A DNA stretch of 64,000 bases from Dipteris shenzhenensis. Taxonomy: Eukaryota. This document shows positions 4,739 through 31,356 of the stretch, piece after piece (positions within the stretch are counted from its first letter, which is position 1; every line of letters begins with the position of its first letter). The stretch lies in NCBI GenBank assembly GCA_047967505.1, contig CM106538.1. One strand, written 5' to 3'. Both the position numbers and the translations under genes were made by a program. Below the pieces are notes generated by a model that was not told the origin of the DNA, did no database searches, and saw only the letters and a program-made list of their open reading frames with translations.

Positions 4739-4774
<36 letters not shown>

Positions 4775-8372: not shown

Positions 8373-10956
8373 TTATTTGGGGCTGCTCGCTTTTCTCCAC
8401 TCACTTTTTGGTAATCCTCCATCAAACCCATCATGTGAGCTGACAAATGACAAAAAACAGAAGGTCTCAGACAAACCCTTTTGTGCACTATCCGATTCAT
8501 GGATAACACCCACAAACCTTCTATGCCAAAATTGAGCCTCTATCATTGCTTCCTTGAGATTTACCATCTCTATCATTGTCATAAATGATAGCAATACATA
8601 CTGTGACGGAGTGGCAATGGTCTCCATCAAGCCACAGAGCAACTTCTTGAAGGCATCCTTATCCCAACACATGGCTTTGGCAGATCCCTCTGAGGTGTCA
8701 AGCACACACAAGCTGATTAGAAGTTGTTCCTTGGAGTGACGTGTTAGAAAGCTCTCCCCCTCCATCTCCATGTTCACTTGAATAATTGTCCAAGGAAAAC
8801 AAGACTGCGATGTAGACTTGTTACCCTCTATTGAACTAATCACCCAATCAACATAGATTGACGCGGCTTCTGGGAAATCAGGTGTGGACTTGCCAACTTG
8901 CAACTTCTCTTTGACCCATGACTCACATGAACCCTTGAAGCTCTGATAAACAATTGAATCAATTTTGAAGTAATTTGCAAGGGTATCCCATGTTTGATGT
9001 TGGGGCAAAAGGTGACGTGAGTTGAACTCCTTAATGAGCACTTCTTTCAAGGCTCTATCATGCTTAATCTCCATTGCCCGTTGAGACATTTCAATGGAGT
9101 CCTTGTCTTTTCTTGACTTGACCAAGACTATTTCTTTAGACTCAATCTCTGCTTGAAGTGCACGTACATCTTCGTCTTCCAATCCTAGCAGACACCTCAT
9201 ATATGTTATTGTAGGATTTCGACCCTCAATATCACCCTGCTTCACCAATGTCAAAATCCTAATCCATTGTTCATAGATGTCATCATCGTATGTGACCATG
9301 TGCGTGTCCTTGGTAGCAAAGTTTGGGCCCATCGATACGCTTGCAACTCCTACAAAATTCTATATAAAAAAATCAAAATCATCTTAGACATTCTTCTAAT
9401 CCAAATCATGTAATAGAGATAATAATGACACTAGTGCGATTCTCCCATTACCATGTCAAAAGCATGACTTGGTAACTAGAAGAATGGCACTAGTGCCATT
9501 CTCACATCAGGGAATTGACACTACTATCATTTCTTTTACAAAGCCATAAACATTCTTGAAATAAAAAATGCATACAAAACAAAGTTTATTACTCACATCC
9601 CAACTTTGTCGATCTTTATGCCCTTTGACAAGGCCTTGGGCTGGTTTCTTTGGTTGTCCGAATGCAATCCACTGCGCCCTTAGTGTTGTAAGATATCGAT
9701 ATATGGTTGATTTTTCAAAACGGTATGTGCCTCCATGTTGGCCATTGATGATATCTTACAACTTGCTTCAACTGGTGCATTGACAACAATTCTTGCCTTC
9801 CTCCATGTATAGAAACCTTTTTGTTGATTGAAGGCTTCTCCACGTGCTTTAGTTATAAACATCCTTGTAGCATAAATCGAATGGTGCCTTGCGAGAATCC
9901 AATAATTATACTCCTTTAACTTTTCCACCTTTATCTCTTCCTTGCACATCGGAGTATTTGTGCCTGTGTGGTAAGGCATAAGATATGCACATGTTGTAGG
10001 AGGTCGTGCATTCATTGCAAAACTCTTGACCAAGTCACTGACATAGCTGAGGGTCAATGTCCTGTACACATATTGGCTTGGTGCTCTAAAGCAATTCATC
10101 ATTGGGATCAACACCTCAAACTCCAAACCAAATGGGAAGTACTCTACGTACTCCATCAAGCCTGTCATACTTGTGTCCTTCCTTTCCAATTTCTTTTGTA
10201 GTGACTTAAAGTCAACATCTGGCTAGATTTTCTTATACAGGATGATAGTTGCTTCAGATGATTTCTCACCTTGTCTTGTTATATGTGTCTCACCACTCCC
10301 CATTGCATCACCTTCACTTCCAGCTCCATCAGTGACTATTCCCGTACCTCCTTGTTTTCCTCCTAAAGTTGTCTTTTTGTCTTTAGCCTCCAGTTTATCC
10401 CCAATGCTTGTTTTTCCATCTGACCTTATTTCCTTCTCACCTATTGTTTCCTCCTCATCGGTCTCTCTAGCCTTCTCTTTCAATGTGTTCTGAGACACTT
10501 GAGAGCTTGATCCCTCAACATCACTTTTCTTGGTTCTTTTCGAAACTTTTCTACTCTTTTTTATATCTTGCTTTATCCCTTTTGTTACCAAATCAAAGCT
10601 CTCTAATATCTGTTGGTTGGTATAATTTTTTGGCTCATTAATCCAACCCCTAGATATCATCGTGTCCTCCCCAGTAGCATTCATCCTCGCATGATCAAGA
10701 CAAGTAGGATCCAATTGATACACATTGCCTCCTAATGTATGAATTTTGAGACAAGGAACGTTGTCTTTCTCGGTATCCTCCATCTCTTTAACTTGTCCAA
10801 CATCTTCAAAAGTTGTTCCTTGGATGTTCACAAAACAATGCACTTTATGGAGTTCTTGGAGTTCGTTATTGTATATATCCAAAAACCATCCTCTTCCAGA
10901 ACTAACTCCATCATAAACTGACACCTCTCGAACTTTCTCTTTCCCTTGCTAGCCAT
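8373..10956 (-). pseudogene. Disrupted two-exon gene (~780 codons restored); putative ParB/Srx-like domain plus possible degenerate N4/N6 DNA methyltransferase-like C-terminal region
   Basis: Three track ORFs (10924-10223, 10189-9680, 9332-8373) join into one reading. ATG at 10956 gives MASKGKEKV if 1 nt is restored. The TAG at 10225-10223 is in frame with the next ORF. A 1-nt frameshift at ~9682 restores LQHLRAQWIAFGQPKKP...SWD. A phase-0 intron 9596-9360 then joins to NFVGVASVSMGPNF. ParB-like: YRTLTLSYVSDLVKSF...YWILARHHSIYA. MTase-like: LLISLCVLDTSEG...WDKDAFKKLL...YVLLSF...SETFCFLSF. Gene structure is well supported; domain identity is by eye only. Confidence 0.7.
9360..9596 (-). other. 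Predicted GT-AG intron (237 bp) of the disrupted gene
   Basis: Donor GAT|GTGAGT at 9596 and T-rich acceptor TTTTTTTATATAG| ending at 9360; splicing keeps the frame; AT-rich. Confidence 0.75.
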
Positions 10957-11162: not shown

Positions 11163-11392
11163 AAGAATGGTATTCGTGCCATTCTCCAACATAATATGAT
11201 GTTAGAAGAGTGTCACAAATGCCATTGAACACATGGATTGTGGGTTTGTTCAAAACGGCACAAGTGCCATCCTCCGTGAGAGTTTGAGGATAATGCCACT
11301 GGTGCCATCCTCCATGATGTTAAGGAGAATGGTAGAAGTTCAATTCATCACATGGATTGCAGAGAATCAGAGAATGGCACCAGTGCCATTCT
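11163..11392. repeat. Degenerate ~40-bp-spaced copies of the GAATGGCAC-NN-GTGCCATTC palindrome (proto-satellite)
   Basis: Motif copies near 11163, 11208, 11253, 11288, 11326 and a perfect-armed AGAATGGCAC-CA-GTGCCATTCT at 11371-11392. Confidence 0.7.
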
Positions 11393-11459
11393 ACTTATGT
11401 GAAGGTTATCACATGAGAGTTTTCTCACCTGACCTTCTAGAGAAGGGCACTGATGCTAA

Positions 11460-14400
11460 TAAGAATGCACATGTGATTTTAGGCTTCTCAATGCCATTTT
11501 CTAGGGCCTAATAAGAGACTAGCACCATTGCCATTCTCCACTTGTACAAATGTCTACCCTACTATTCTAGGAGGGGTACTCTAGGAGAGTGATGTCCAAT
11601 TCCAATCCACATGTGAGTTTTATGATCTCAGTGTGATTATGTAGGTTTCAGCATGAGATTGGCATCACTCCCATTCTCCACGAGTGGTAGTCTAGACATT
11701 CCACTAATTATATTGGCTACAGTAGGATAATGGCAAAAGTGCCAATGCACATGTGAGTTTGGAATTCCTTGTGCATGTTTTCAAGTCATGGTATGAGATT
11801 GGCACCATTGCCATTCTCCACAGAGATTGACACAAATCCATATGATCTCTACACAGCAGAGATAGTGATCACTACATAAAAGAATGCACATGTGAGTTTA
11901 GGCTTCTCAATGCCATTTTGATGGGCCTAATAAGAGATTGCCACCACTGCCATTCTCCACTTGTACAAATGTTTACCCTACTATTGTAGGAGGGGTATTC
12001 GAGTGATCATAGGAGAGTGGTGTCTGATTCCAATCCAAATGTGAGTTTGATGATCTTAATGTCATTATATAGTTGCCATCATGAGATTGGCATCACTGCC
12101 ATTCCCCACTAGTGATAGTCTAGACAAACTAAACCTATAGATTGACATTCCAGGGCCTAATAAGAGATTGACACAATTCCATATGATCTCTACACAGCGG
12201 AGACAGTGATCAATACATAGAAGAATGCACATGTGAGTTTAGGATTCTCAATGCCATTTCTTAGGGCCAGCATGAGTTTGGCATCACTGCCATTCTCCAC
12301 TAGTGGTAATCTAGACAAACTAAACCTATAGATTAACATTCCACTAATTTTATTGGCTGCAATAGGATAATGGCAAAAGTGCCAATGCACATGTGAGTTT
12401 AGGATTCCTTGTGCATGTTTTCAGGTCATGGTATGCGTTTGGCACCACTACCATTCTCCACTGGTGGCATTCTCCATAGAGATTGACACAAATCCATATG
12501 ATCTCTATACAGCGGAGACAGTGATCACTACATAGAAGAATGCACATGTGAGTTTAGGCTTCTCAATGCCATTTCTTAGGCCTAATAAGAGATTGGCACC
12601 ACTACCATTCTCCACCTGTACAAATGTTTACCCTATTATTCTAGGAGGGGTATTCCAGTGATCATAGGAGAGTGGTGTCCGATTCCATTCCACATGTGAG
12701 TTTGATGATCTCAGTGTCATTATGTAGTTGCCAGCATGAGATCGGCATCACTGCCATTCTCTGCTAGTGGTAATTTAGACAAACTAAACCTATAGATTCA
12801 CATTCCACTAATTTTATTGGCTGTAGTAGGATAATGGTCAAAGTTCAAATGCACATGTGGGTTTAGGATTCCTTGTGCATGTTTTCAGGTCATGGTATGA
12901 GATTAGCACCACTGCCATTCTCCACTGGTGGCATTCTTCACAGAGATTGACACAATTCCATATGATCTCTACACAGTGGAGACAGTGATCACTACATAGA
13001 AGAATGCACATTTGAGTTTAGGATTCCTTGTGCATGTTTTCAGGTCATGGTATGAGATTGGCACCACTGCCATTCTCCTCCATAGAGATTGACACAAATC
13101 CATATGATCTCTGCACATGTGCGTTTAGGCTTCTCAATGCCATTTCTTAGGGCCTGATGGCACCACTGCGATTCTCGACTTGTACAAATGTTTACGCTAC
13201 TATTCTAGGAGGGGTTCCAGTGATCATAGGAGAGTGGTGTCCTATGCCATTCCACATGTGAGTTTGATGATCTCAGAGATTGACACAATTCCATATGATC
13301 TCTACAGAGTGGAGACAGTGATCACTACATAGAAGAATGCACATGTGAGTTTAGGATTCTTTGTGCATGTTTTTAGGTCATGGTATGAGATTGGCACCAG
13401 TACCATTCTCCACTGGTGGCATTCTCCACAGAGATTGACATAATTCCATATGATCTCTACATAGTGGAGACAGTGATCACCACATAGAAGAATGCACATG
13501 TGAGTTTAGGATTGCTTGTGCATGTTTTCAGGTCATGGAATGAGATTGGCACCACTACCATTCTCCACTGGTGGCATTCTCCATAGAGATTGACACAATT
13601 CCATATGATCTCTACATAGCGGAGACAGTGATCACTACATAGAGGAATGCACATGTGAGTTTAGGATTCCTTGTGCATGTTTTCAGGTCATGGTATGAGA
13701 TTGGCACCACTGCCATTCTCAACTGGTGGTATTCTCCATAGAGATTGACACAAATCCATATGATCTCTGCACATGTGAGTTAGGCTTCTCAATGCCATTT
13801 CTTAGGGCCTAATAAGAGATTGGCACCACTGCCATTCTCCACTTGTACAAATGTTTACCCTACCATTCTAGGAGGGGTATTCTAGTGATCATAGAAGAGT
13901 GGCATCCTATTCCATTCCACATGTGAGTTTGATGATCTCAGTGTGATTATGTAGTTGCCAACATGAGATTGGCATCACTGCCATTCTCCGCTAGTGGTAA
14001 TGTAGACAAATTGCACCTATAGATTGACATTCCACTAATTTTATTGGCTACAAAAGGATAATGGCAAAAGTGAGTTTAGGATTCCTTGTGCATGTTTTCA
14101 AGTCATGGTATGAGATTGGCACCACCGCCATTCTCCACTGGTGGCATTCTCCCCAGAGATTGACACAATTCCATATGATCTCTACACAGTGGAGATAGTG
14201 ATCACTACATAGAAGAATGCACATGTGAGTTTTGGCTTCTCAATGCCATTTCTTAGGGCCTGATAAGAGATTGGCACCACTGCCATTCTCCACTTGTAGA
14301 AATGTTTACCCTACTATTCGAGGAGGGGTCTTCCAGTGATCATAGGAGAGTGGTGTCCGATTCCATTCCACACTAGTGGTAGTCTAGACAGCATGAGATT

Positions 14401-17400
14401 GGCATCACTGCCATTCTCCGCTAGTGGGAATCTAGACAAACTGAACCTATAGATTGACATTCCACTAATTTTATTGGCTGCAGTAGGATAATGGCAAAAG
14501 TGCCAATGCACATGTGAGCTTAGGATTCCTTGTGCATGTTTTCAGGTCATGTTATGAGATTGGCACCACTACCATTCTCCACTAGGTGCATTCTCCACAA
14601 AGATTGACACATTTCCATATGATCTCTACTCAGCGGAGACAGTGATCACTACATAGAAGAATGCACATGTGAGTTTAGGCTTCTCAATGCCATTTCTTAG
14701 GGCCTAATAAGAGATTGGCACCACTGCCATTCTCCACTTGTACAAATGTTTACCCTACTATTCTAGGAGGGGTATTCCAGTGATCATAGGAGAGTGGTGT
14801 CCGATCCCAGTCCAAACGTGAGTTTGATGATCACAATGTCATTATATAGCTGCCATCATGAGATTGGCATCACTGCCATCCCCCACTAGTGGTAGTCTAG
14901 ACAAAATAAACCTATAGATTGACATTCCAGGGCCTAATAAGAGATGGACACAATTCCATCTGATCTCTACATCACGGAGACAGTGATCACTACATAGATT
15001 AATGCACATGTGAGCTTAGGATTCTCAATGCCATTTCTTAGGGCAAGCATGAGATTGGCATCATTGCCATTCTTTGCTAGTGGTAATCTAGACAAACTGA
15101 ACCTATAGATTGACATTCCACTAATTTTATTAGCTGCAATAGGATAACGGCAAAAGTACCAATGCACATGTGAGTTTAGGATTCCTTGTGCATGTTTTCA
15201 GGTCATGGTATGAGATTGACAGCACTGCCATTCTCCAATTCTATAGATTGACATTCCAGGGCCTAATAAGAGATTGACACAATTGCATATGATCTCTACA
15301 CAGCGGAGACAGTGATCACTACATAGAAGAATGCACATGTGAGTTTAGGATTCTCAATGGCATTTCTTAGGGCAAGCATGAGATTGGCATCACTACCATT
15401 CTCCGCTAGTGGTAATCTAGAAAAACTAAACCTATAGATTGACATTCCACTAATTTTATTGGCTACAATAGGATAATGGCAAAAGTGCCAATGCACATGT
15501 GAGTTTAGGATTCCTGGTGCATGTTTTCAGGTCATGGTATGAGATTGGCACCACTGCCATTCTCCACTGGTGGGATTCTCCAGACAGATTGACACAATTC
15601 CATATGATCCCTACACATCGAAGACTGTGATCACTACATAGAAGAATGCACATCACCACTAGTGTAGAATGGCAGTAGGATAATGCCAAAAGTGCCAATG
15701 CATGTTTTCAGGTCATGGTATGAGATTGGCACCACTGCCATTCTCCATAGAGATTTGTATCAATCGTTGTGGAGAATCCATAGAAGAATGCACATGTCAG
15801 TTTACGCTTCTCAAGCCATTTCTTAGGGCCTAATAAGAGATTGGCACCACTGCCATTCTCCACTTGTACAAATGTTTACCCTACTATTCTAGGAGGGGTA
15901 TTCTAGTGATCATAGAAGAGTGGTGTCCGATTCCATTCCACATGTGAGTTTGATGATCTCAATGACATTATGTAGTTGCCAGCATGAGATCGGCATCACT
16001 GCCATTCTCCACTAGTGGTAATCTAGTCAAAATAAACTTATGAATTGACATTCCACTAATTTTATTGGCTGCAGTAGGATAATGGCAAAAGTACAAATGC
16101 ACATGTGAGTTTAGGATTCCTTGTGCATGTTTTCACGTCATGGTATGAGATTGGCACCACTGCCATTCTCCACTGGTGGCATTCTCCATAGAGATTGGCA
16201 CAAATCCATATGATCTCTACAAAGGGGAGACAATGATCACTACATAGAAGAATGCACATGTGAGTTTAGGCTTCTTAATGCCATTTATTAGGGCCTAATA
16301 AGAGATTGGCACCACTTCCATTCTCCACTTGTACAAATGTTTACCCTACTATTCTAGGAGGGGTATTCTAGTGATCATAGGAGAGTGGTGTCCGATTCCA
16401 ATCCAAATGTGAGTTTGATGATCTCAATGTCATTATATAGTTACCAGCATGAGATTGGCATCACTGCCATTCCCCGCTAGTGCTAGTCTAGACAAACTAA
16501 ACCTATAGATTGACATTCCAAGGCCTAATAAGAGATTGACACAATTGCATATGATCTCTACATAGCGGAGACAGTGATCACTACATAGAAGAATGCACAT
16601 GTGAGTTTAGGATTCTCAATGCCATTTCTTAGGGCAATGATTAGATTGGCATCACTGCCATTTTCCGCTAGTGGTTATCTAGACAAACTAAACCTATAGA
16701 TTGACATTCCACTAATTTTATTGGCTACAGTAGGATAATGGCAAAAGTGCCAATGCACATGTGAGTTTAGGATTCCTTGTGCATGTTTTCACGTCATGGT
16801 ATGAGATTGGCACCACTGCCATTCTCCACTGGTTGCATTCTCCAGAGAGATTGACACAAATCCATATGATCTCTACACATCGAAGACTCTGATCACTACA
16901 TAAAAGAATGCACATTACCACTAGCGGAGAATGGCAGTAGGATAATGGCAAAGGTGCCAATGCACATGTGAGTTTAGGATTCCTTGTGCATGTTTTTAGG
17001 TCATGGTATGACATTGGCATCACTGCCATTCTCCACTGGTGGCATTCTCCACAGAGATTTACACAAATCCATATGATCTCTACACAGTGGAGACAGTGAT
17101 CACTACATAGAAGAATGCACATGTGAGTTTGGGCTTCTCCATGCCATTTATTAGAGCCTAATAAGGAGATTGGCACCACTACCATTCTCCACTTGTAGAA
17201 ATGTTTACCCTACTATTCTAGGAGGGGTATTCCTATGCTAATCCAAATGTGAGTTTGATGATCTCAATGTCATTATGTAGTTGCCAGCATGAGATTGGCA
17301 TCACTGCCATTCCCCACTAGTGGTAGTCTAGACAAACTAAACCTATAGATTGACATTCCAGGGCCTAAAAGAGATTGACACAATTCCATATGATCTCTAC

Positions 17401-19589
17401 ACAGTGGAGACAGTGATCATTACATAGAAGAATGCACATGTGAGTTTAGGATTCTCAATGCCATTTCTTAGGGCAAGCGTGAGATTGGCATCACTACCAA
17501 TCTCCGCTAGTGGTAATCTATACAAACTAAACCTATAGATTGACATTCCACTAATTTTATTAGCTGCAGTAGGATAATGGCAAAAGTGCCAATGCACATG
17601 TGAGTTTAGGATTCCTTGTGCATGTTTTGAAGTCGTGGTATGAGATTGGCACCACTGTCATTCTCCACAGAGATTGACACAATTCCATATGATCTCTACA
17701 CAGCAGAGACAGTGTTCACTACATAGAAGAATGCACGTGTGAGTTTAGGCTTCTTAATGCCATTTTCTAGGGCCTAATAAGAGCTTGGCACCACTGCCAT
17801 TCTCCACTTGTACAAATGTTTACCCTACTATTCTAGGAGTGGTATTCCGGTGATCATAGGAGAGTGGTGTCCAATTCAAATCCAAATCTGAGTTTCATGA
17901 TCTCAATGTCATTATATAGTTGCGAGCATGAGATTGGCATCACTGCCATTCCCCACTAGTGGTAGTCTAGACAAACTCAACCTATAGATTGACATTCCAG
18001 GGCCTAAAATTTAGGATTCTCAATGCCATTTCTTAGGGCAAGCATGAGATTGGCATCACTGCCATTCTCTGCTAGTGGTAATCTAGACAAACTAGACCTA
18101 TAGATTGATGTTTACCCTACTATTCTAGAAGGGGTATTCCAGTGATCATAGGAGAGTGGTGTCCGATTCCAATCCAAATGTGAGTTTGATGATCTCAATC
18201 TCATTATATAGTTACCAACATGAGATTGGCATCACTACTATTCCCCACTAGTAGTCTAATTTTATTGGCATTCTCCACACAGATTGACACAATTCCATAT
18301 AATCTCTACACAGTGGAGATAGTGATCACTACATAGAAGAATGCACATGTGAGTTTAGGCTTCTCAATGCCATTTCTTAGGGCCTAATAAGAGATTGGTA
18401 CCACTACCATTCTCCACTTGTACAAATGTTTACCCTACTATTCTAGGAGGGGTATTCCAGTGATCATAGGAGAGTGGTGTCCGATTCCAATCCACATGTG
18501 AGTTTGATGATCTCAGAGATTGACACAATTCCATATGATCTCTACATAGCAGAGACAGTGATCACTACATAGAAGAATGCACATGTCAGTTTCAGATTCC
18601 TTGTGCATGTTTTCAGGTCATGGTATGAGATTGGTACCACTACCATTCTCCAGAGAGATTGACACAACTCCATATGATCTCTGCACAGCGGAGATAGTGA
18701 TCACTACATAGAAGAATGCACATGTGAGTTTAGGATTTCTTATGCATGTTTTCAGGTCATGATATGAGATTGGCACCACTACCATTCTCCACAGAGATTG
18801 ACACAATTCCATATGATCTCTACATAGCAGAGACAGTGATCACTACATAGAAGAATGCACATGTGAGTTTAGGATTCTCAATGGCATTTCTTAGGGCAAG
18901 CATGAGATTGGCATCACTCCCATTCTCCGCTAGTGGTAATCTAGACAAACTAAACCTATAGATTGACATTCCACTAATTTTATTGGCTGCAGTAGGATAA
19001 TGGCAAAAGTACCAATGCACATGTGAGTTTAGGATTCCTTGTGCATGTTTTCAGGTCATGGTATGAGATTGGCACCACTACCATTCTCCAGTGGTGGCAT
19101 TCTCCACAAAGATTGACACAATTCCATATGATCTCTACACATTGGAGACTGTGATCACTACATAGAAGAATGCACATTACCACTAGCGGAGAATGGCAGT
19201 AGGATAATGCCAAAAGTGCCAATGCATGTTTTCAGGTCATGGTATGAGATTGGCACCACTGCCATTCTCCACAGAGATTTGTGTCAATCTCTGTGGAGAA
19301 TACATAGAAGAATGCACATGTCAGTTTACGTTTCTCAATGCCATTTCTTAGGGCCTAATAAGAGATTGGCACCACTGACATTCTCCACTTGTACAAATGT
19401 TTACCCTACATGAGATTGGCATCACTGCCATTCCCCACTAGTGGTAGTCTAGACAAACTAAACCTATAGATTGACATTCCAGGGCCTAAAAGAGATTGAC
19501 ACAATTCCATATGATCTCTACACAGAGGAGACAGTGATCTTTACATAGAAGAATGCACATGTGAGTTTAGGATTCTCAATGCCATTTCT
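11460..19589 (+). repeat. Satellite array block 1 (155-bp period; + defined as GAGATTGGCACCACTGCCATTCTCC on the top strand)
   Basis: Three monomer types share two boxes, GAGATTGGCA(C/T)CACTGCCATTCTCC and CACATGTGAGTTT. 155-bp offset between 13302 and 13457; 465-bp trimer between 15864 and 16329. Confidence 0.95.
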
Positions 19590-20851
19590 GTGAACCATTC
19601 CTGATGATTTGTCATATGAGATGATGCACCGCTGTCGATGTACCAAGGATCCTGTTCCACTTGGTCGACTTGATAGCTAAAATCCTCTTTGGGATTGAAA
19701 TCAGTGTCTAGGTGCATTGTATCAGTCTGATGCAATTCTTCACTTGCAAGAAACATATTGCCATGTTCATTTGCAAAATGACTGTGACTAGAATGTCCAC
19801 CACGATGATTTCCTCTTCCTCGGGAATTCCCTCGATTACTGCTGGATTGATTGCCTTGATCATACTGCTTCTTGCGGCAATCTCTTTCATAGTGTCCAAA
19901 CTTGTGATAGTAGTTGCACTGGATGTTTGACACATTGGTGGATGCATTCCCTCGTCCTTGAAATCTTCCTCGGTTGGAATGATTTCCTCTTTGCTGATTC
20001 TGATGTTGCTGAGGATGATGCTGATGCTGATGTTGATTTTGACTTTGATTTTGTTGATGATAACCACTTTTCTGATATGATCTACCTCTGTTTCTACCTT
20101 TGCCTCTGCTTCTATCTGAAGCTGTGAATGCTTGATCATTAGAATGACCTTTACGTGCTTGAATGGCCTGAGTCCTAAGTTCTTCACCAAGTAGAACTGA
20201 CTGAAGTCCTTCTAGTGTTGGAATTTGCCGTTGGATGGCAATACTCTGGACTAGATTCTCATATCCTTTTCCTAGTCCATTCAGCATTACTTGAACCATT
20301 TCTGCGGGATTCATAGTCTCTCCTGCTGCTGCAAGTTGATTGTTGTAGTCTTTGATGCAGAGTACATAAGCATGACCGGTTTCACTGCTGTTGCGGAAAC
20401 TCTGGTTGATCTGGTTTCTCAGGGTGAGAATCCTGGACGTGTTCTTGGACTCATAGAGAGCTACGAACATATCCCATGCTTCTTTTGATGTCTTGACTGT
20501 GTTGAGCTGTTCTAGCATGACATCTTGCACATTCTGCTTGATCAGGTGATAGGCATACTTGTCTTTCTTATCCCATTCTACTTGAGCTCGGGCAATGGTA
20601 GGATCTGCTACTGGTGCGGAAACTGTTTGTGTAGATGTAGATCCCGATGTAGATCCCGTTGCTGGTGTTGTGACAACAGATGGAGTAGAGCTACTGGTGG
20701 CTGGATCGACCAATGGTCTAGGTATAGATCCATCGACATACTCCCATTTGTCCTGAAGCACAAGAATGGTCTCCATTCGATATTTCCATGTACCATAATT
20801 GGAGTTGTCTAACTTAGCAGATGCCTCTAGATTGAGGTTGCTAGTCGACAT
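19590..20851 (-). pseudogene. gag: Copia Gag plus N-terminus of aspartic protease (truncated)
   Basis: MSTSNLNLEASAKLDNSNYGTWKYRME; UBN2-type Gag; degenerate knuckle CNYYHKFGHYERDC; WYIDSGASSHMT; the frame runs out into satellite (stop at 19541). Confidence 0.9.
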
Positions 20852-21634
20852 GGTGCAAACAATGTACTCAAAAAGTGTCCTAGAAAACTCTGTATGAATC
20901 AACTGCAAATACACTGAAGATGCCAAGTGAAATCTCTGTACCGTCGGTGAAGATAGAACTGCAGTAAATAAGATCTGACCTGTGTTACAAGGCTTGTGGC
21001 AATGATGCCGGGAATAGCCAAGAGGCTTTACAAGGCTAAAAAATGATGTGCACGATGCCGTGAGATAGCCAAATAGGCTTTACAATGGTGGCATGTGTGT
21101 GTGAAATCAAATGATATCTGCCCACTAAATCAATCTGCAATGCCTCTGAACTCTGAAGTCTGCTCACTGAACTGATGAACGTAAGGTTTCAGGTAATGTA
21201 ATGATGTGAAATCGGATGTGAGCGTATGGACTGACTCCGAGTAGGTACTAGTTGGGAATTTCGGGCATGGCTTAGATTGGCAACTTGGGGAAATTCAAAG
21301 CGTCCCCTCTATGGCGATCTAGTCTACTCTGATCTAGATCTAAACCAACTGTCGATCGATGAAAGAACAGCAAATAATTCCTTTTCTTTTGTTCTTTTTA
21401 AGTGCTGGGTCAGATGCATCGATGTAGAGGCAAATGTGCGTGAAGGAAGTGGTTTTGTCGGCGAGGCACAAATGTGAGTGTAACTTGCGCCGAAATGTGT
21501 GTGTGATGTAACGAGCACGTAGAGCACAAAAAAACGAGCGACTTTTCTTTTTGGAGCACCCTCAAATTCTTCCTGAATCAAGAGATATGACTTGATCTAG
21601 GTGGAGGGGCAAAAGGAGTGCAAATGGTGCTCAA

Positions 21635-22125
21635 TGATGATGTGTCACTGTGAGTCACATGCAGTGATGATGTGGCATTGTGCTTAGCAAGAGGTGTGCC
21701 AGTGAAGCTCTGTGCTGAGGTGGTAGGAGTGTGCACATGCAGTGTGTGCACAGTGTGCTTGGCAAGGGACTGTGCCTACAGAGGGTCAGTGCTGACTGGA
21801 CTCTGCTGAGGTGGCACTGCTGAGTTGGCACAGATGATGTCAATAGGGTGACGGGGCAATGCTGACATGGGATTGATGACATGTCCCTGATGATGTGGTA
21901 GGTGACGTGGCAGTCGGTGATGATGTGGCAGTCGATGATGATGTGGCCTGATGACATGGATTGTTGACGTGTCAATGCTGATGTGGTAGTGTGGATAGGG
22001 TGATGACATGGCAATGATGATGTGGCAGAGGATAAGACAGCTACACGTGGCACATCCGAGTGCCTGATGATGTGGCAATTGGAGATAAGGTTGCCACGTG
22101 GCAAAACTCTATCTGCCACATGTCG
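21635..22125. repeat. Dispersed GATGATGTGGCA / ACGTGGC motif cluster in the leader of element 1
   Basis: About ten GATGATGTGG-like copies (e.g. 21666, 21889, 21919, 22016, 22066) and GCCACGTGGC at 22093-22102. Confidence 0.7.
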
Positions 22126-23359
22126 AAATGCGAGGCACCAGAATCTATCCAAGATTCTGATGGAATCTTGGAGATTTCGTCGTCTTCTCCGTTGATGGAG
22201 GCAGCCGGGCACTGGCCGTCGAGGTGCCTTCGGAGGTGGTTGTGAAGCCGTCAGGCTTGTGGCTATGCAGTCCCGTTTGGAGAGGCTGTCGATCGGAGAT
22301 GAAGAAGGTGCTAGGCGCTGGTCCGTCGTGATCGTTGATGGGATGAGGCATTGGCGACGCTATGGAAGCCCGTTGGTGGAGTTGCTGGTGCTGTGGGGAG
22401 CCACTTTGTGAAGCGGGTTGGAGAGCTCTCAGACAGCATTGCTAGAGCCTGTAGAGCCCGTGGAAGAGGAGGCTGGGCCAGAGCGTTGCTCTTTGGTTTG
22501 GGAGTCGAAGGTTCGCTATGGAGCAGCCCGATTGTTCGAAGGTCGTTGGTGTTGTTGATGCATTTAGCACCTCTCCAGATGCTCTTTGTTGCATAGATGG
22601 CTCGTTGTTAGGAGCAGTCGCCTTGCTTGTCGTAGAAGACAAGCAAGTCTTGGGTTTGTTAAAGGAGACCTTCGGGTTGACATGACTTTAGTAGCCAGAC
22701 TTGCTGCGCTCTATCTTGCTCTTCGCCATGAGGGGCTCCTCCAAAGTCATGGTAGGAAGGAGGATTCACAGTGGGCGTCGATGGCAGTGGAGGTCACCTT
22801 ACTACATGAGTGCTATGCATGAGCTTTGCACTGGTCCGCCTTCGCTCATGAGCTCATGCTGCAGTCCGTTGAAGAGCGTTCGTTTGGAGCCTTGGAGCTG
22901 TTTGTTGAAGGCTCTGGCGGATGAAGCTGTGTGGACTTGGAGGAGTCGAAGCAATTGGAGCTCTCCAGTTACATGAGAGACTTGGAGTCTCACAGGACTT
23001 GAGCTCCAAACATAACTCTTTCTCTTCTCTCTTCGAAGAGAGATCTTACTAAAGCTTTACTTGTTCTTTGCAGAGATAAGACTCCCTATCTTTCCTTTCT
23101 TACTCCAAGTACAAAGGAAGCAGAACACTCTCTCTCACCGTAGATCTCTCAATCTTTCAAGAATAGAATTCTCTCGCAGAAGAACGAAAATCTTTCACAA
23201 ACTCTTGAAGGAGATGAACAGAAATATCTCACCAAATGGACGGAATTTTCTCTCAACGGAAGTGAAGGGAAGGATCTCACAATCACTCAAGAGAACTCTC
23301 AATCTCACAATCTCTCTCACACTCTCAAGAATCTCAATGTCTCAGCGGAAGACAAGGAA

Positions 23360-23371
23360 GCTCTGATACCA
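23360..23371 (-). other. Primer-binding site (tRNA-iMet) of element 1
   Basis: TGGTATCAGAGC on the minus strand directly after the LTR end. Confidence 0.95.
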
Positions 23372-23628
23372 TGACAAAATATGAAGAGGGGAGAGGAGAA
23401 GAGTGGAGATGAGGAGAGAGGGCACAGCTAGAGAGCACACCACAAATGACTAACTGTACACTAGAATTAGTTGAAAAAATAGAATATATACAAACCCTTT
23501 TAGGGTTAGGGTTAGGGAATCTAACCCTTTCCTTTATAGCACTCTATAAGGTTAGTGCTATGCACATATGATCACGTGATGGTGCTATGCACACATGATC
23601 ACATGATGTTGAGCGTGAACTCTCAACA
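23372..23628 (-). repeat. 5' LTR of element 1 (257 bp)
   Basis: Minus strand starts TGTTGAGA and ends TTTGTCA; bounded by satellite and PBS; contains (TTAGGG)3 at 23500-23517 and a 27-bp tandem pair at 23555-23608. Confidence 0.85.
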
Positions 23629-24756
23629 AGTGTTGCCAATCTCATACCATGACCTGAAAACATGCACAAGGAATCCTAAACTCACATGTGCATTGGCACT
23701 TTTTCCATTATCCTATTGCAGCCAATAAAATTAGTGGAATGTCAATCTATAGGTTCAGTTTGTCTAGATTACCACTAGCAGAGAATGGTAGTGGTGCCAA
23801 TCTCTTATTAGGCCCTAAGAAATGGCATTGAGAAGCCTAAAGTCACATGTGTAGAGATCATACGGATTTGTGTCAATCTCTATGGAGAATGCGACCAGTG
23901 GAGAATGGCAGTGGTGCCAATCTCATACCATGACCTGAAAACATACACAAGGAATCCTAAACTCACATGTGCATTCTTCTATGCAGTGATCACTGTCTCC
24001 GCTGTGTAGAGATCATATGGAATTGTGTCAATCTCTATGGAGAATGCACCAGTAGAGAATGGCAGTGGTGCCAATCTCATACCATGACCTAAAAACATGC
24101 ATAAGGAATCCTAAACTCACATGTGCATTTGCACTTTTGCTATTATCCTACTGCAGCCAATAAAATTAGTGGAATGTCAATCTATAGGTTTAGTTTGTCT
24201 AGATTACCACTAGCAGAGAATGGCAGTGATGCCAATCTCATGCTGGCAACTACATAATGACACTGAGATCATCAAACTCACATGTGGAATAGAATCGAAC
24301 ACCACTCACATGTGCCAATCTCATGCCTCCTAGAATAATAGGGTAAACATTTGTACAAGTTGAGAATGGCAGTGGTGCCAATAGGCCTAAGAAATGGCAT
24401 TGAGAAGCCTAAACTCACATCTGCATTCTTCTATGTAGTGATCACTATCTCCGCTATGTAGGGATCATATGGATTTGTGTCAATCTCTGTGGAGAATGCC
24501 ACCAGTGGAGAATGGCAGTGGTGCCAATCTCATACCATGACCTGAAAACATGCACAAGGAATCCTAAACTCACATGTGCATTGGCACTTTTGCCATTATC
24601 CTACTGCCATTCTCCGCTAGTGGTAATATGCATTCTCCTATGTAGTGATCATTGTCTCCGCTGTGTAGAGATCATATGGATTTGTGTCAATCTCTATGGA
24701 GAGTGCCACCAGTGGAGAATGGCAGTGGTGCCAATCTCATACCATGACCTGAAAAC
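23629..24756 (-). repeat. Satellite block 2 (inverted)
   Basis: GGAGAATGGCAGTGGTGCCAATCTC on the top strand. Confidence 0.95.
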
Positions 24757-27700
24757 TGTGGGGGTTAAAGGTCACTGTGCCTTTACCCCGGTTATGTACA
24801 ATACTCAAACACATATATAAATGAATGAAAAAGAAGATTAGGGTGGTTCTGCACCCACCAAACTTGTCTGGCTCTGTGTCTCTCTCTCCTTCTTCCATCC
24901 TTGCTTCCGTTGAGAGCTCTCTCAACTGTTTTCAAAGAAAAAGTCGTTTTTTGAGCTTTTCCATGTTCCGTTCGATGACAGAGACTCCATATTGACTTGT
25001 AGAGGCAACTATTGCTTACTTTTGGTGTCCACATTACTTCAGGAGCTTGGAAACACCTTCATTCTTGAATCTGAGATCATTTCAGTGGATTTCTGACTCA
25101 CTGTGTCAGTTCCTACGTTTTTTGCCCGGGTGTTGGAACTCAAGTTTGGAGCAACCATTTGCAGATCTGTCAGTTCTGGTGGACTCAAGAGGTCCTAAAA
25201 CTTCTATGTTGCTCATCATTCGCACTCTGGTGGAGTTTACAAACAGCTCTGTTTCAAAAAACGTTTTTCAGCCCGTGTGTTGGACCCAGTGATTGAGACC
25301 ACGGTTTCCAAAACCGTCTGTCCCATTATTGCGTTCCGGACGCCCAAAAACCCCTACCTGTCAGTTCTTGCGCAATTCGGTGGAGGATTTTCAGAGTTAT
25401 AGATCTCTATGTATTCGATTTCGTCTCTCTGTTATGCATTTTTCATTCTAAGGTTTTGAAACCTTAGATTTATGCCACATGGCAGTGGATAAGTGTTGAC
25501 TCCCATTTCTCACTCATCGGCGGTTGGGATTTTGGAGTTCTGGCAGAAGAGAGATATTTGCAGATTTTCTTGCTCATTCCGATTATGCAATGGCGCCCAT
25601 GTTTTGAGGCATCTCAGGTTCTATTTTCAGTAGCGCTCATTACCGTGGGACTATGATTTCTTGAGCATACCTTATGCAGATCACTCTGGTTGCAGTTTGA
25701 GCAGTGTGCGCTCATTCGTGGTGTGCATTGGGTTGCAGTGGATGATTTATAGGCCATTTGGATGCATTGCGGTCCTTATTGGATGCGCTGATAGGCCCAA
25801 ATTGCCTTGTGGGATGCTATTTTTATGGACGCTTTGCACATGGATGCTATTTTAAGCTGAGGGACAGCTTTGACACATTGCAGGTGATGCACTGATAGTG
25901 CTATGCTCTCTTGGATGAGATATTATTGATGCATGCGCCAGTGGACGGTGTTTATGCTTGAGTCATTTGGCACTTATTGGCATTTTCGTTTGGGCCAGAT
26001 TTGCTCATATGGATGCATAGTATATGCACATGAGTCAGATGCATCTTTTGATGCTTTGAGCTTTGAATTTTGGTGATATTTCACTCTATTGTGGCATACA
26101 CATTTGGGTGCACCTAGTATTTGGTGTGATTCTCTCTTGAGGCACTAGCATTTGGGATTTTGCTTTATTTGCATCATGGCATCCTCTTCCACGTCTGAAA
26201 AGGAGTTTTTCAGCATTAAAAAGTTTGATGGGACAAACTTTTCTTTGTGGAAAGAACAAATAAGGAATGTGCTTATTCAAAAGAAGCAGATTAAACCCTT
26301 GGCAGTGATTGAAGCTAAGCTTGGAAATATGTCTGAGGATGATTGGAATGAGTTGGATGCATTAGCAAAGTCTACTATTAGACTTCATCTTGTAGAGTCT
26401 GTTTATTTCACAGTAGTAAATGAGCAGACTACGGAAGATTTGTGGAAGAAACTGTGTGCCACTTATGAGAAGGAAACCGCCTCTAATAAAGTTTACCTCA
26501 TGAAGAGGTTGTTTGAGCTGCAGATGAAGGAAGGGGTCTCCATTGCTTCTCACTTGAATGAATTCAATATTATTTTCAGCCAGCTTCAGGCTCAGAAAAT
26601 GAATTTTGATGCGGAGACTAAGGCAATATTTCTCTTATGTTCATTGCCATCCTCATGGGATACCTTCCGTACAGCTGTCAGTAACTCTGCACCTGGTGGA
26701 GTACTGAAATTTGATGATGTTGTGGGTAGCTTGTTGGCCGAGGAGATTAGACGGAAGTCTATGGATGGCAACAAGCAAGATGCAGCCTTAAATGTGCAAA
26801 GGGGTAGATCACAGTTCAGGGGGAAGTCCCAAGAAAGAGGGAAGTCTCGTAGCAAAATCCAGGGCACGGAACATTGAGTGTTACCATTGTGGCAAGAAGG
26901 GCCATATGAAAAAGGATTGCTACAAGCTGAAAAGAGAGCAAAAGGATAAGAAAAAGAATGCAAATTGGGGTGCAAATAAAAAGGAAGAGAGTCCAAGGGA
27001 CGACAAAGGAAAAGTGAAGATCGAGGAGATCAATGCAGTCACACATGATAGTGACAATGATGTTCTCTTCATGTCTACTTTATCTGCAGAGTTGCTTACC
27101 ACTTCAGATGATGCATATTCCCAGGATTGGATTTTGGATTCTGGTGCTTCATTCCATGTTACTCCCCATAGGGAATGGTTCTCCACTTATGACAGTGGAA
27201 AGACAGGTTGTGTGCATCTTGGAAATGACTATGCATGTGACATAGTGGGAGCAGGTGACATAAAGTTTTTTTTTGCAAATGGGTCTGCATTTGTTTTGAA
27301 ACATGTGAGACATGTGCCTAAGCTGACCAAGAGTCTTATTTCAGTGGGTCAACTAGATGATGCTGGTTTTCACACCACTTTTGGCTTTTAGAGTTGGAAA
27401 ATTAAGAAGGGCTCTATGCTTTTGGCCAGGGGTGCCAAGTGTGGGACTTTGTATCCCTTATATGTATCAGGGGTATTTGATCATGTTGTTGCAATAATCG
27501 AGCAGCCAAGCACTTCTTTGTGGCATTGCAGGTTGGGGCACATGAGCCAGAATGGAATGAAACTCTTATGCCGTTTGGGTTATGTACCACATTTGAGTTT
27601 CTCTGATTTTGAATTTTGTGAGCATTGTCTCTATGGGAAGCAGACTAAATCAGCCCATAAAAGAAGGGGAAAGAAAGAGTTTGAAAAGCTTGACTTGGTG

Positions 27701-29446
27701 CATTCAGATGTATGTGGTCCCATGCCTACATGGTCATTAGGCGGGGCTGAATACTATGTGACATTCATTGATGATGCAACTAGGAAAATGTGGGCTTATG
27801 CTATAGCTCGGAAGAGTGATGTGTTCCAGGTATTTCAGAAATGGCTGGCCTTGGTTGAGAATCAGTCAGGTAGAATGCTTAAATGCCTACGGACTGACAA
27901 TGGTGGAGAGTATCTCTCTCATGACTTTCAGCATTTCTGTGATACACGTGGGATTAAGAGGGAGCTCACATCCCCTCGTACTCTAGAGCAAAATCCAGTT
28001 GCAGAAAAGATGAACCGTACCATTCAAGAAAGGTTGCAACGCATGCTTTCCAATGCAAGTCTTTGGGCTGAGGCAATGAAAACTGCAGTGCATGTGATCA
28101 ATAGATCACCTAGTAAGAGTTTGGATGGTGGTATTCCTGAAGAGGCATGGAGTGGCAAGAAGCCCTCTTACTCTGATTTGCGTATATTTGGGTGTGAGGC
28201 ATATGCACATGTGCCAAAAGAGCTTCGAAAGAAGCTAGATCCTAAGTCTAGGAAATGCATCTTTCTGGGTTATGGTGAAAGTGGAGAGATGGGCTATCGT
28301 CTCTGGGATCCAAAAGCAAAGAAGATCATACGTAGCCATGATGTGGTCTTCAATGAGAAGAAGATGCATAAGGCACCCATGAGGGATGTGGAAATGAGGA
28401 GAACCACTTTCCAGGATGTGAATCCACCTGCATATGTTGATAGACAGCAAGCTATCCATGCACCAAATGTGCAAGAAATGGTACAACCAAGTACTCCCAT
28501 AGGTATACAATCAAGGGTAGATGATGGATCATCTATTGGTGGAAATGATGAGCCAAATGTGGCTGATATGCAAGTGGGACAGCAAGCTGAAATGCCCTTG
28601 AGAAGATCATCTAGAGTGTCTAGACCGCCTGATAGGTTTGTTCCAGGGGTAGACTATGTGATGCTTACTGATTGCGGGGAGCCTTCTTGCTACAAAGAGG
28701 CTATGATGCGTGAGGATCAATGCAAGTGGGAGTATGCTATGCAATCAGAGATGAGTTCACTTATGAAGAATAAGACTTGGGACTTGGTTTCTTTGCCACA
28801 TGGAAAGAAAGCATTGCCATGTAAATGGGTCTACAAAATGAAGGTCACAAGTGATGATGTGCCTAGGTACAAGGCCCGTTTGGTTGCTAAAGGGTTCAAG
28901 CAAGAGAAGGGTGTGGACTTTGATGAGATATTCTCTCCAGTTGTGAAGATGACCACACTTAGATGCATGCTTGGACTAGTGGCAGTAGAGGATATGGAGC
29001 TTATGCAAATGGATGTCAAGACAACTTTCTTGCATGGGGATTTGCATGAGGAAATTTACATGGTGCAGCCGGAAGGCTTTGAAGAAAAGGGCAAAGAGCA
29101 TTTAGTTTGCAAGCTGAAGAAGAGTCTCTATGGTCTTAAGCAAGCACCTAGAGAATGGTATCAGAAGTTTGATGCTTTCATTCAGTCCCAGGGTTTTAGA
29201 AGGAGTGAAATTGATCACTGCCTCTACACTAAAAGGGCTAAGGATAATAGCCTGATAATCTTGGCACTATATGTGGATGATATGCTATTGGCTAGCAAGA
29301 ATACTTATGAGCTAGATGCATTAAAGGCCAAGTTGCATGAGGCCTTTGATATGAAGGATTTGGGACTTGCAGGTCATATTCTTGGTATGTGCATCACGCG
29401 TGATCAGAGTAGGAAACTCCTTTGGCTTTCACAAAAAGAGTATGTT
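24757..29446 (+). mobile_element. Ty1/Copia element 2 (Tnt1/Tork-like motifs), PBS deleted, 3'-truncated within RT
   Basis: Short LTR 24757-24924 (TGTGG...CTCA) homologous to 43578-43748; gag-PR-INT-RT order; ends at LSQKEYV and joins satellite. Confidence 0.92.
26176..29446 (+). pseudogene. gag-pol: Copia Gag-Pol polyprotein, disrupted and truncated
   Basis: KFDGTNFSLWK; CYHCGKKGHMKKDC; WILDSGASFH; WHCRLGH..CEHC; VHSDVCGP; RTDNGGEY; YKARLVAKGF; LYVDD. Frameshift at ~26854-26857, stop at 27389-27391, no RNase H. Confidence 0.93.
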
Positions 29447-30268
29447 ACCACTAGTGGGGAATGGTAGTGATGCCAATCTCATGCTGGCAACTATATAATG
29501 ACATTGAGATCATCAAACTCACATTTGCATTGGAATCGGACACCACTCTCCTATGATCACTAGAATACCCCTCCTAGAATAGTAGGCTAAACATTTGTAC
29601 AAGTGGAGAATGGCAGTGGTGCCAATCTCTTATTAGGCCCTAATAAATGGCATTGAGAAGCCTAAACTCACATGTGCATTCTTCTATGTAGTGATGACTG
29701 TCTCCACTTTGTAGAGATCATATGGATTTGTGTCAATCTGTGTGGAGAATGCCAGTAGTGGAGAATGGCAGTGGTGCCAATCTCATACCATGATGTGAAA
29801 ACATGCACAAGCAATCCTAAACTCACATGTGCATTTGTACTTTTGCCATTATCCTACTGCAGCGAATAAAATTAGTGGAATGTCAATCTATAGGTTTAGT
29901 TTGTCTAGATTACCACTAGTGGAGAATGGCAGTGATGCCAATCTCATGCTGGCAACTACATAATTTCATTGAGATCATCAAACTGACATGTGGAATGGAA
30001 TCGGACACCACTCTTCTATGATCACTAGAATACCCCTCCTAGAATAGTAGGGTAAACATTTGTACAATTGGAGAATGGCATGTGGTGCCAATCTCTTATT
30101 AGGCACTAAGAGATGGCATTGAGAAGCATAAACTGACATGTGCATTCTTCTATGTATTCTCCATAGAGATTGACACAAATCTCTATGGAGAATGGCAGTG
30201 GTGCCAATCTCATACCATGACCTGAAAACATGCGTTGGCACTTTTGCCATTATCCTACTACCATTCTC
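29447..30268 (-). repeat. Satellite block 3 (inverted)
   Basis: Reverse-complement monomers. Confidence 0.95.
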
Positions 30269-30938
30269 ACAAGGACATTAAAATATTGGCTCATTATGAG
30301 AAACCTCATCATGGCCATATAGAAATATATAGAGGAGTGTAGAATTTGCAAATAGGAGAGCAAGCATCTTGAGCCACTATCAATATTGTCACATCCAAAT
30401 GAAAAAAATCATTCTTTTAATAAAAAGTGGTCATATCCCCCAGGCACTTGCTATGGTTTGTTACATCCATATGTATAAGAGTGTTCTATTCAAAAGCAGC
30501 CATAATTTTTTGTATATCAATCCAATTTTCTTCTCCATCGTCAATAAAATGTACTACGAACTTTCCGATATACGGACGTAGTAAATCGTTCATAAGCATG
30601 ACGAAGGTCGCTGGAGCATTGGTAAGTCCGAAGGGCATTACCAAAAACTCATAATGACCAGTGTAGAGAGGTGAACCTTTTAGATGCAAACTTGTCCATT
30701 TTCCTTCATTTGTATCCAAAGTAATTACAAATTTATGACCCCCTTAACTTGTGATTGATTGTTGAAGGTCTTCTACATTGAATTTGAACATTTGGAGTTA
30801 TAGCGCAAAAGTTATAGCTATTTTACTATTCTCTTAATATTCCATGCAATTAAGTTCTATTACTTGTATATATGTTTTTGTAAAATTAATTTAGGAAAAT
30901 ATAATGAATATTTCAATGTGACAATTTAGGCCATTCAG
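30269..30938. other. Non-satellite patchwork island at an orientation switch
   Basis: 670 bp unrelated to the satellite; flanks are in opposite orientation; no LTR, TIR or TSD seen. Confidence 0.8.
30537..30662 (-). pseudogene. Ty3/Gypsy-type reverse transcriptase fragment (42 codons)
   Basis: [42 protein letters not shown] is the canonical Gypsy RT segment; similarity stops abruptly on both sides. Confidence 0.88.
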
Positions 30939-31277: not shown

Positions 31278-31356
31278 AACCTCATCCCAGACCCTGTGAA
31301 GATAAGTAACCGTCTGGAAGATGGCATCAACCTGAAGTGGTGTCATGGCAACTTTG

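Follow-up and report, generated by a model that had tools for sequence, protein, structure and literature searches.

A decayed fern gene of a multi-copy family predicted to join a ParB/Srx fold to a methyltransferase-like fold, beside a satellite-like array

Introduction

Three open reading frames (ORFs) on the minus strand of a 64,000-nucleotide stretch of Dipteris shenzhenensis DNA (NCBI GenBank assembly GCA_047967505.1, contig CM106538.1; this whole stretch is called the window below) raise the question of whether they are the remains of a single gene and, if so, what it encoded and why it lies next to a large array of repeats. The ORFs span 10223-10948 (241 aa), 9680-10222 (180 aa) and 8373-9359 (328 aa). 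The original prediction, made from the letters alone, had fused them into one spliced gene with a ParB-like domain and a possibly dead methyltransferase domain. We find that the locus is one spliced two-exon gene of a multi-copy family and that the copy in the window is a dead pseudogene. According to structure models of intact relatives, the family's protein would join a ParB/Srx fold to a beta-class DNA-methyltransferase (MTase) fold that is devoid of the canonical catalytic loop.

Fusions of ParB and methylase domains characteristically occur in phages and other mobile DNA. Only recently did ParB-methylase proteins of bacterial type come to attention as products of accessory genes in the giant transposons of brown, red and green algae, and the combination has so far been reported mainly from such algal elements. 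Iyer, Zhang and Aravind traced several eukaryotic methylase clades to phage ParB-terminase loci, and credit land plants with few N6-adenine (N6A) methylases (PMC4738411). The family described here appears to be undescribed in vascular plants; no fern or other land plant turned out to have such a family on record in a full-text literature search that left most subscription journals and the supplements of papers outside its reach.

Gene structure and relatives

We searched 1.84 billion representative proteins exhaustively with HMMER, using the 328-aa ORF as the query, and obtained 56 relatives at E≤1e-3, eight of them at E≤1e-30 and the best at E 5e-58 with 37% identity (two long repetitive proteins among the 56, P0031 and P0045, were treated as spurious). 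The only named members are more than 25 'hypothetical proteins' of the fern Adiantum nelumboides, among them copies 72-94% identical to P0014. Counterparts of all the window ORFs occur in the same order on one polypeptide, across the intron position, in five relatives (P0014, P0057, P0061, P0047 and P0007). At least ten predicted proteins of ~400 aa from other assemblies end in ...WD|VS or ...YD|VS, reading through the GT donor at the same codon. A metagenome scan for relatives yielded three short loci only. The metagenome contig L001 carries an intact version of the gene, in which exon 1 ends ...AGWD and is followed by a short intron at the same place and a 470-codon frame that runs to a stop; its protein of ~840 aa is a complete form without the NIF domain that one subfamily bears (see below). 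Because the relatives are collinear and L001 holds an intact two-exon gene with its intron at the same place, the window locus is one gene. The family is multi-copy and recently amplified, as the number and the similarity of the Adiantum proteins show. No relative was found in prokaryotic genomes, nor, with the family pattern, among 2.9 million viral contigs. Three predicted Adiantum proteins (P0006, P0016 and P0059) are family chimeras with retroelement pieces (RT_RNaseH_2, Pol_BBD and a CCHC knuckle), which points to nested insertions, or to fused gene models, in DNA rich in repeats.

The joined reading comprises 245 + 180 + 28 + 328 = ~781 codons (Table 1), in line with the ~780-codon spliced gene first proposed, and the relatives, collinear on single proteins, run through both sites at which the window is frameshifted. 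The frameshift predicted at ~9682 was borne out: the window reads CAC TAA GGG where relatives have H-L-R-A-Q-W (..ILKHLRAQ..). The other, put at ~10946, was off by 14 nt and belongs at ~10933/10932, but within the same frame overlap: the frame of the probable start codon is that of ORF 10828-10971, which overlaps ORF 10223-10948, and the frameshift falls inside the overlap. The first part of exon 1, whose PH-like N-terminal domain shows the motif WFLDIY..FEDVGQ..DTMISRGW, was matched by tblastn with P0060, P0057 and P0014 and also by the family alignment A3. The canonical phase-0 intron stood up as proposed, with GT..AG ends, a length of 237 nt and a donor position conserved in the relatives. 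It contains two copies (9422-9443 and 9481-9502) of a 22-nt palindrome that recurs upstream of the gene, and none of the contigs of three public runs (X1-X3), which we compared over window 8200-11200, joins across it. Since homology ends at 8418, the 15 codons that precede the stop at 8373 lie outside the family protein. One contig of X3, a run guessed to be RNA, skips exactly 108 nt of the helical region at 8786-8893 (36 codons, in frame, with ends TT..GC); it could be a deletion variant copy and not a canonical intron.

Table 1. Coordinates of the gene remnant and its adjoining repeats in the window
Feature	Position	Strand	Remarks
Satellite-like array	11461..64000		Units of ~155, 450 and 650 nt with AATGGCA-NNN-GTGCCAAT; interrupted by Copia elements
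Seven copies of 22-nt palindrome AGAATGGCAC-NN-GTGCCATTCT	11164..11537		Spaced 36-145 nt, just upstream of ATG, grading into the satellite-like array
Probable start codon ATG	10954..10956	-	Read with the extra base of the X1 copy, N-terminus MASKGKRKVREVSV.. parallels MASKNKVARVPVSV.. of P0077
Exon 1, first part: PH-like N-terminal domain and basic low-complexity linker	10226..10953	-	
Frameshift 1 (1 nt)	~10933/10932	-	One extra base behind 10932 in the X1 contig
In-frame stop TAG	10223..10225	-	CAG (Gln) in close copies X1, X2 and X3 (10225 A>G)
Predicted ParB/Srx-fold domain region YFPFGL..CAYLMP..YWILARHHS..RKARIVVNAP..QPYIDILQH	9683..10222	-	38% identity to P0082 residues 174-356, E 5e-34
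Degenerate signature motif YWILARHHS	9878..9904	-	Relatives YWI[IL][DS]GQHS
Frameshift 2 (1 nt), Leu codon of H-L-R-A-Q-W	9681..9683	-	Between 9683 and 9682; extra base behind 9682 in X1 and X2
Exon 1 end, RAQWIAFGQPKKPAQGLVKGHKDRQSWD	9597..9680	-	Alignment; tblastn with P0007, P0057 and P0061
Phase-0 GT..AG intron, 237 nt	9360..9596	-	GT at 9596-9595, AG at 9361-9360; preceding codons TGG GAT (W D)
Exon 2 start, helical region between ParB/Srx and MTase-like cores	8841..9359	-	Homologous to P0002 residues 1-175; helices 17-169 in model
Predicted MTase-like Rossmann core, strands beta4-beta7 only (motifs IV-VIII)	8418..8840	-	Aligns to P0002 residues ~176-306
Motif-IV-like strand and loop ISLCVLDTSEG	8685..8717	-	Asp codon 8699-8697; without canonical PP[YFW]
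Non-homologous tail to stop, beyond breakpoint 8418	8373..8417	-	Motif X/motif I half and further C-terminal parts gone

Decay of the window copy

The copies in the X1-X3 contigs are 95-99% identical to the window. The frameshift at 9682 is absent from X1 and X2 and that at 10932 from X1, and the in-frame TAG, present in the window as had been noted, is replaced by CAG in all three runs. X1 has GGG at 9889-9887 and CAG at 9886-9884, giving AGQHS where the window reads ARHHS; the suggestion that the AGG codon was a mutated GGG is therefore upheld by a close copy. The 35 listed differences between window and contigs comprise 28 non-synonymous and 6 synonymous changes and the stop. The window has T/A against C/G of X1 at 33 places and the reverse at 11, an excess that is the bias expected from decay by deamination of methylated cytosines, provided that the changes ran in the direction we infer.

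The X1 and X3 contigs diverge from the window below 8418, both with the same loose end. When 19 family proteins were used in tblastn, homology stopped at 8394-8424 for all of them, and no further exon was found elsewhere in the window. The relatives extend ~160 residues beyond the point homologous to 8418, and so the window copy has been cut or interrupted there. Since each lesion is missing from one or more of the X1-X3 copies, X1 reads AGQHS, and X1 and X3 continue past 8418, the window copy is a decayed, 3'-truncated pseudogene and is dead.

The ParB/Srx-fold half

Searches with sequence alone gave little. Pfam at E≤1 returned no family for four window ORFs, and at E≤10 nothing consistent for six proteins and all members of the family alignments A3 (23 members) and A4 (24 members); phmmer and hmmsearch against PDB sequences gave no match, or E ~0.8 at best. 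Because these methods were silent, we folded two intact relatives, P0082 and P0002, with family alignments.

P0082 (401 aa) served as the model of the N-terminal half, with a mean predicted local distance difference test (pLDDT) score of 68.9 and values of 80-94 within domains. In the model, residues ~12-136 form a beta-rich N-domain and residues ~200-347 an alpha/beta domain. We compared it with 48,161 chains by the VIA structure search, which is independent of Foldseek. The N-domain matched a PH/PTB-type fold with Z ~5, only a common arrangement. The top eight VIA rows for P0082 were all ParB/Srx proteins aligned over ~200-347: PadC (Z 9.4; 100 aligned residues, root-mean-square deviation 3.1), KorB (Z 9.0; 94 aligned residues), the serine kinase SerK (Z 8.4; 99 aligned residues), the Arabidopsis sulfiredoxin AtSrx (Z 7.3), pNOB8 ParB-N (Z 7.2), SbnI (Z 6.8), Atu1540 (Z 6.1) and human sulfiredoxin, Srx (Z 5.7). 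Foldseek with the same model returned ParB, Noc, SbnI and Srx; ParB, Noc and SbnI made up the whole of the top seven (E 0.08-0.3, probability 0.95-0.99).

A near-invariant motif of the family, Y.YWI[IL][D/S]GQHSI.AA[KR], falls in alignment A3 on strand 283-287, Gly288 and helix 289-300 of the P0082 model. We take the position of [D/S]GQHS to be the DGxHR/GxxR signature site of the ParB/Srx superfamily, with Arg replaced by Ser. GQH or NQH was found in 29 of 29 pattern-matched proteins. Pfam ParBc (PF02195) had no match at E≤10 in the 23 A3 members and none in the window ORF; sub-threshold signals came only from DUF6551 (E 0.01, on P0059, over the motif) and from the ParB-like phrog_1033 (E 0.03-0.07, in two of four intact N-halves). 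On the strength of the model, the assignment of a ParB/Srx fold to the N-half of the intact relatives holds. The ParB/Srx core first suspected from the letters thus gains support from both structure searches, which place the predicted fold in the region homologous to 9683-10222.

The methylase-like half

The second exon was modelled on P0002 (468 aa; pLDDT 82.5, predicted template modelling score 0.75). Foldseek found 42 matches at E≤1e-3 for this model, and the leaders were all beta-class N6-adenine/N4-cytosine (N6A/N4C) DNA methyltransferases: CcrM, the best at 1.7e-6, followed by M1.HpyAVI, M.RsrI, the rotifer N4CMT, a Type III Mod subunit, TTHA0409, M.PvuII, MboIIA and BceJIV. VIA, applied to the Foldseek list, aligned 179-217 residues with each of 20 beta-class entries at Z 11.9-14.7, and scored MT-A70 enzymes lower, at ~10; its best matches were TTHA0409 (Z 14.7 over 193 aa) and CcrM (13.8 over 202 aa). 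The order of strands in P0002 is that of the beta-class permutation, with IGLCVLD at 204-210, three further strands, a long helix at 335-354, MVIDVF at 360-365 and EVICLV at 380-385. The family profile kk.lik.lI..fc.ed.vvldvfs.nG aligns to TQKP..VLDFFAGSG of M.RsrI, a match that is not significant by itself (E 0.8) and lies in the expected place. As modelled, the second exon of the intact relatives would have a circularly permuted beta-class N6A/N4C MTase fold, and this assignment, too, holds. The beta-class layout that the original prediction had made out in the letters is accordingly matched by a predicted fold, by Foldseek and VIA, in the region homologous to 8418-8840.

For a census of catalytic motifs, 85 family rows were aligned to the profile, 40 of them informative at motif IV and 34 at motif I. 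Of the 40 rows, 38 retain the motif-IV Asp that closes strand 4. PP[YFWH] follows this Asp in none of the 40, where the loop reads xT[E/H]G or similar (DTSEG in the window), and no relative with an intact DPPY loop occurred among the 56 matches or the 12 matches of a second search. As no row keeps PP[YFWH], loss of the catalytic loop is a trait of the family and not local decay; the earlier claim that DPPY had been eroded to DTSE is correct in that DPPY is missing, but not in ascribing its absence to erosion of this copy. At motif I most of the 34 rows have [VL][IV]D.[FY][SGA].G (FSNG, FSLG, FSGG or FGDG), the first Gly being usually absent. Only residues 1-306 of P0002 have a counterpart in the window ORF, and the window copy therefore lacks the half with motifs X, I and II. 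Pfam N6_N4_Mtase (PF01555) gave no match at E≤10 in the 24 A4 members and none in the window ORF, and the amino acid:DNA transferase family ADDT matched one of the 24 weakly (E 5e-4, below the cut-off). An ESM atlas search gave its best score, 0.86, to unnamed clusters and placed an N6_N4_Mtase cluster at rank 11 with 0.80; with the helical region 8841-9359 as the query it returned nothing usable.

A subfamily with a NIF domain

In one subfamily an acidic linker is followed by a Pfam NIF domain (PF03031), which was found above the cut-off in 13 relatives (E 1e-8 to 6e-17), including P0003, P0007, P0047, P0063-P0069, P0072 and P0073. The canonical catalytic motif at the start of NIF/FCP1-SCP domains is DxDx(T/V). 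The start of the NIF-like domain here (profile positions 1-10) reads ..IILSLCGLL.. in eight of nine sequences and ..VILDLNGLL.. in the ninth, without DxDxT. No NIF domain was found in the window by tblastn with the 19 family proteins. The family would thus combine three enzyme-derived folds, ParB/Srx, beta-class methylase and NIF, the latter two without their canonical catalytic motifs. The tails of P0003, P0059 and P0064 after the NIF-like domain are conserved, with ..YGQ.P...GH.L...V...W.. and ..EL..LA..LG......K...I..; the last part resembles, and may be, a SAP-type DNA-binding motif.

Repeats next to the gene

The gene lies in an island at 5.4-11.4 kb that is unique within the window. The 'transposon-like repeats' that were thought to flank it proved to be a satellite-like array with nested Copia elements. 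The core of the 22-nt palindrome has 400 strand-hits in the window against 0.52 expected, and variants of it fill the satellite; the ~50 kb of satellite at 11461-64000 consist of blocks in both orientations. The exact palindrome of the window is absent from the loci of the relatives. The L001 gene lies between arrays (L001:1-500 and L001:3376-4265) of a ~50-55-nt direct repeat with core TTGGACAAGTGGTGGACC, which has 15 matches against none expected, in a single orientation; the contig begins and ends in the array. At the locus L003, four copies of TGGCC-TTGR-GGCCA (none expected) are found in ~46-nt tandem units at L003:170-410, within 450 nt upstream of the start codon of a further family member. 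The half-sites are alike: TGGCAC in the window and TGGCC in L003, both palindromic, and TGGAC in L001, direct. Every locus whose 5' flank reaches 500 nt or more, three in number, therefore has arrays of short repeats beside the gene.

Nature and origin of the family

We regard it as probable, though well short of certain, that the locus is a decayed copy of a ParB/Srx plus pseudo-methylase family whose product was likely a DNA or chromatin binder and whose gene was an accessory gene of some mobile element. The protein would derive from a prokaryotic or phage ParB-methylase fusion, and would bind DNA or chromatin and not act as a conventional amino-methyltransferase. Its ParB/Srx module appears to be the part still under motif-level constraint. 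The family seems to behave as a selfish, amplifying gene and would most likely be an accessory gene of the same kind as those encoding the ParB-methylase proteins of algal giant transposons; the adjoining arrays of short repeats, often palindromic, are candidate binding sites. That the gene was cargo of a large mobile element, as first suggested, is plausible if unproven, the evidence being circumstantial (the multi-copy state, recent amplification and the published algal parallels). If the family is mobile, the range of such transposon accessory proteins would come to include vascular plants, and a testable connection would be at hand between a DNA-binding protein and the satellite beside it.

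Several points weigh against this account. No Pfam, PHROG or PDB-sequence match is significant for the ParB-like or the methylase-like domain, and for this reason the domain identities come from AlphaFold models of relatives and not from the window protein; the Foldseek E-values for ParB are weak (0.08-0.9). Motif I is kept in the form D.[FY]..G, and to judge from this residue pattern the methylase-like domain may bind S-adenosylmethionine or have a non-canonical activity. Three loci with adjoining arrays are few, such arrays are common in repeat-rich genomes, and the L001 repeat is direct and not palindromic. No terminal inverted repeat, long terminal repeat or target-site duplication was found around the gene (5200-11600), and the ORFs of at least 130 aa that were scanned (12 of 31 window ORFs) have no transposase domain except that of Copia. 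The gene has a conserved intron, as do ordinary host genes. The algal accessory proteins (of Sola1 and Plavaka) are likened to the family by description only and not by sequence, and the two frameshifts could be assembly errors.

The chief competitor to an accessory gene of a mobile element is a host family that does not move, in which a domesticated ParB-methylase binds chromatin or satellite DNA, copies arise by ordinary segmental or tandem duplication, and the window copy is a pseudogene stranded in heterochromatin. The conserved intron and simple two-exon structure would fit such a family well, as would the eukaryotic-type additions (the PH-like and NIF-like domains), the failure to see either a transposase or termini, and the conservation of motifs across divergent members, which implies selection on the protein. 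We nevertheless consider it rather unlikely, in view of the predicted proteins of a single fern, which number more than 25 and of which many are 72-94% identical and many are truncated or have lost internal parts, the several diverged copies in each of X1-X3, the C-to-T-type decay typical of silenced repeats, and the embedding of copies in repeat arrays at three unrelated loci. If it were nevertheless a host family, a horizontally acquired methylase would have turned into a pseudo-enzyme. It is also quite unlikely, in our estimate, that the methylase-like domain is active with a non-canonical site, whether as a DNA or RNA N6A/N4C methyltransferase or in some other DNA-modifying transfer, and marks the element's own DNA. 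For such an enzyme speak the strand-4 Asp and the motif-I pattern kept in most rows, an intact fold modelled with high confidence, the weak ADDT match, and the algal transposon proteins, which are predicted to be active MTases (PMC12477816); against it stand the census, in which PP[YFWH] is wanting throughout and the first Gly of FxGxG usually so, the silence of N6_N4_Mtase in Pfam, and the precedents for inactive MTase-like proteins in DIRS1 transposons and the METTL14 partner subunit (PMC4738411).

Two further explanations concern the window copy itself. It is very unlikely that the gene is intact and owes its two frameshifts and its stop to mistakes in assembly or sequencing. Such mistakes often take the form of single-base indels, and the contigs of the three runs are undamaged at exactly these three sites; however, they differ from the window at ~2% of other positions (37 differences in 1,598 nt) and hence are other copies or alleles, the signature motif has been hit by two substitutions, non-synonymous changes are in excess, and the structural break at 8418 and the want of C-terminal exons in the window would have to be accounted for as well. 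Finally, it is extremely improbable that the locus is what remains of a giant virus, or of some other viral element, that had integrated with a ParB-methylase gene: the ParB-Tls loci of phages (PMC4738411) offer a precedent, but the family pattern found no relative in the viral contigs, the window has no viral hallmark genes, and the spliceosomal intron is conserved.

A more far-reaching reading would make the family a land-plant counterpart of ParB/parS. The protein would bind the repeats that flank its own gene, with the non-catalytic methylase gripping the DNA, gene and array would co-amplify as a selfish unit, and the 50-kb satellite would have grown from the array. We think this unlikely as a whole; if true, it would make the locus a protein-coding gene that seeds and rides a satellite.

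Comparison with known systems

A close parallel is a giant transposon of Ectocarpus, Sola1-1_Ec32, which has an accessory gene with ParB-like and DNA-methyltransferase domains (PMC12477816). In both cases a long eukaryotic protein unites a ParB-like domain with an N4C/N6A methylase domain of bacterial type, and both are multi-copy and repeat-associated; a role in binding and marking its own element has been proposed (PMC12477816). However, the Ectocarpus gene is part of a delimited transposon that also has a transposase, and its domains can be recognised from sequence (PMC12477816). The fern family, in contrast, has no defined element, no Pfam match for either of these two domains and no catalytic loop, and has PH-like and NIF-like domains added. 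None of the algal ParB-methylase proteins was among the 56 relatives. In Plavaka elements of the red alga Bostrychia, PAG2 combines an N6A methylase with SET, and PAG3 a ParB N-domain with a 2OG oxygenase; inverted-repeat tandem arrays adjoin PAG3, and self-binding has been proposed (10.1101/2025.02.11.637652). A transposon-borne ParB-type domain with inverted-repeat arrays next to its gene resembles the situation in the window, where seven palindromes lie upstream and two in the intron. In Plavaka, however, ParB and methylase are on separate proteins with other partners, whereas in the window family they are fused and the array has grown to a 50-kb satellite.

With prokaryotic and phage ParB/beta-class methylase fusions and with CcrM, M.RsrI, M1.HpyAVI, TTHA0409 and M.PvuII, the family would share the predicted fold, the placement of ParB/Srx N-terminal to the methylase, and the circular permutation common to beta-class enzymes (the half with strands 4-7, then the motif X helix, then motifs I and II). 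It differs from them in lacking the (D/N/S)PP(Y/F/W) loop and in its weakened FxGxG, an identity of 9-14%, spliceosomal introns and eukaryotic accessory domains. The bdelloid rotifer N4CMT (PDB 8s9m/8s9n/8s9o; E 1.5e-5, Z 11.9-12.9) is likewise a eukaryotic, horizontally acquired beta-class fold, but it is a solved DNA cytosine-N4 methyltransferase by its entry title, whereas the fern-type family has no catalytic loop and does have a predicted ParB/Srx domain. The MTase domain of DIRS1 and METTL14 show that a methylase fold devoid of catalytic residues may persist, in a transposon protein in the one case and in a non-catalytic partner in the other (PMC4738411); they belong, however, to other methylase clades (PCIF1-like and MT-A70), and neither has a ParB domain.

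Other features of the window

The ORFs of 5300-8420 look non-coding or of low complexity. Long ORFs at 6094-6640 lie on both strands over a purine-rich AGGAGG/AAGCAAGG micro-repeat (6202-6271); given the micro-repeat, the ORFs on both strands and the lack of a Pfam match for 6143-6640, this part is probably non-coding. An uninterrupted ORF at 56732-61138 on the plus strand encodes a Copia polyprotein of 1,468 aa (gag, Pol_BBD, integrase and RVT_2) and may mark a young element; the other Copia copies in the window are fragmented. At 1455-5361 there is an unrelated tandem array with units of ~700 nt and inverted repeats of 214-434 nt, which includes a near-palindromic sub-unit of 106 nt containing GCAGCGCGTTAACGCGCTGC.

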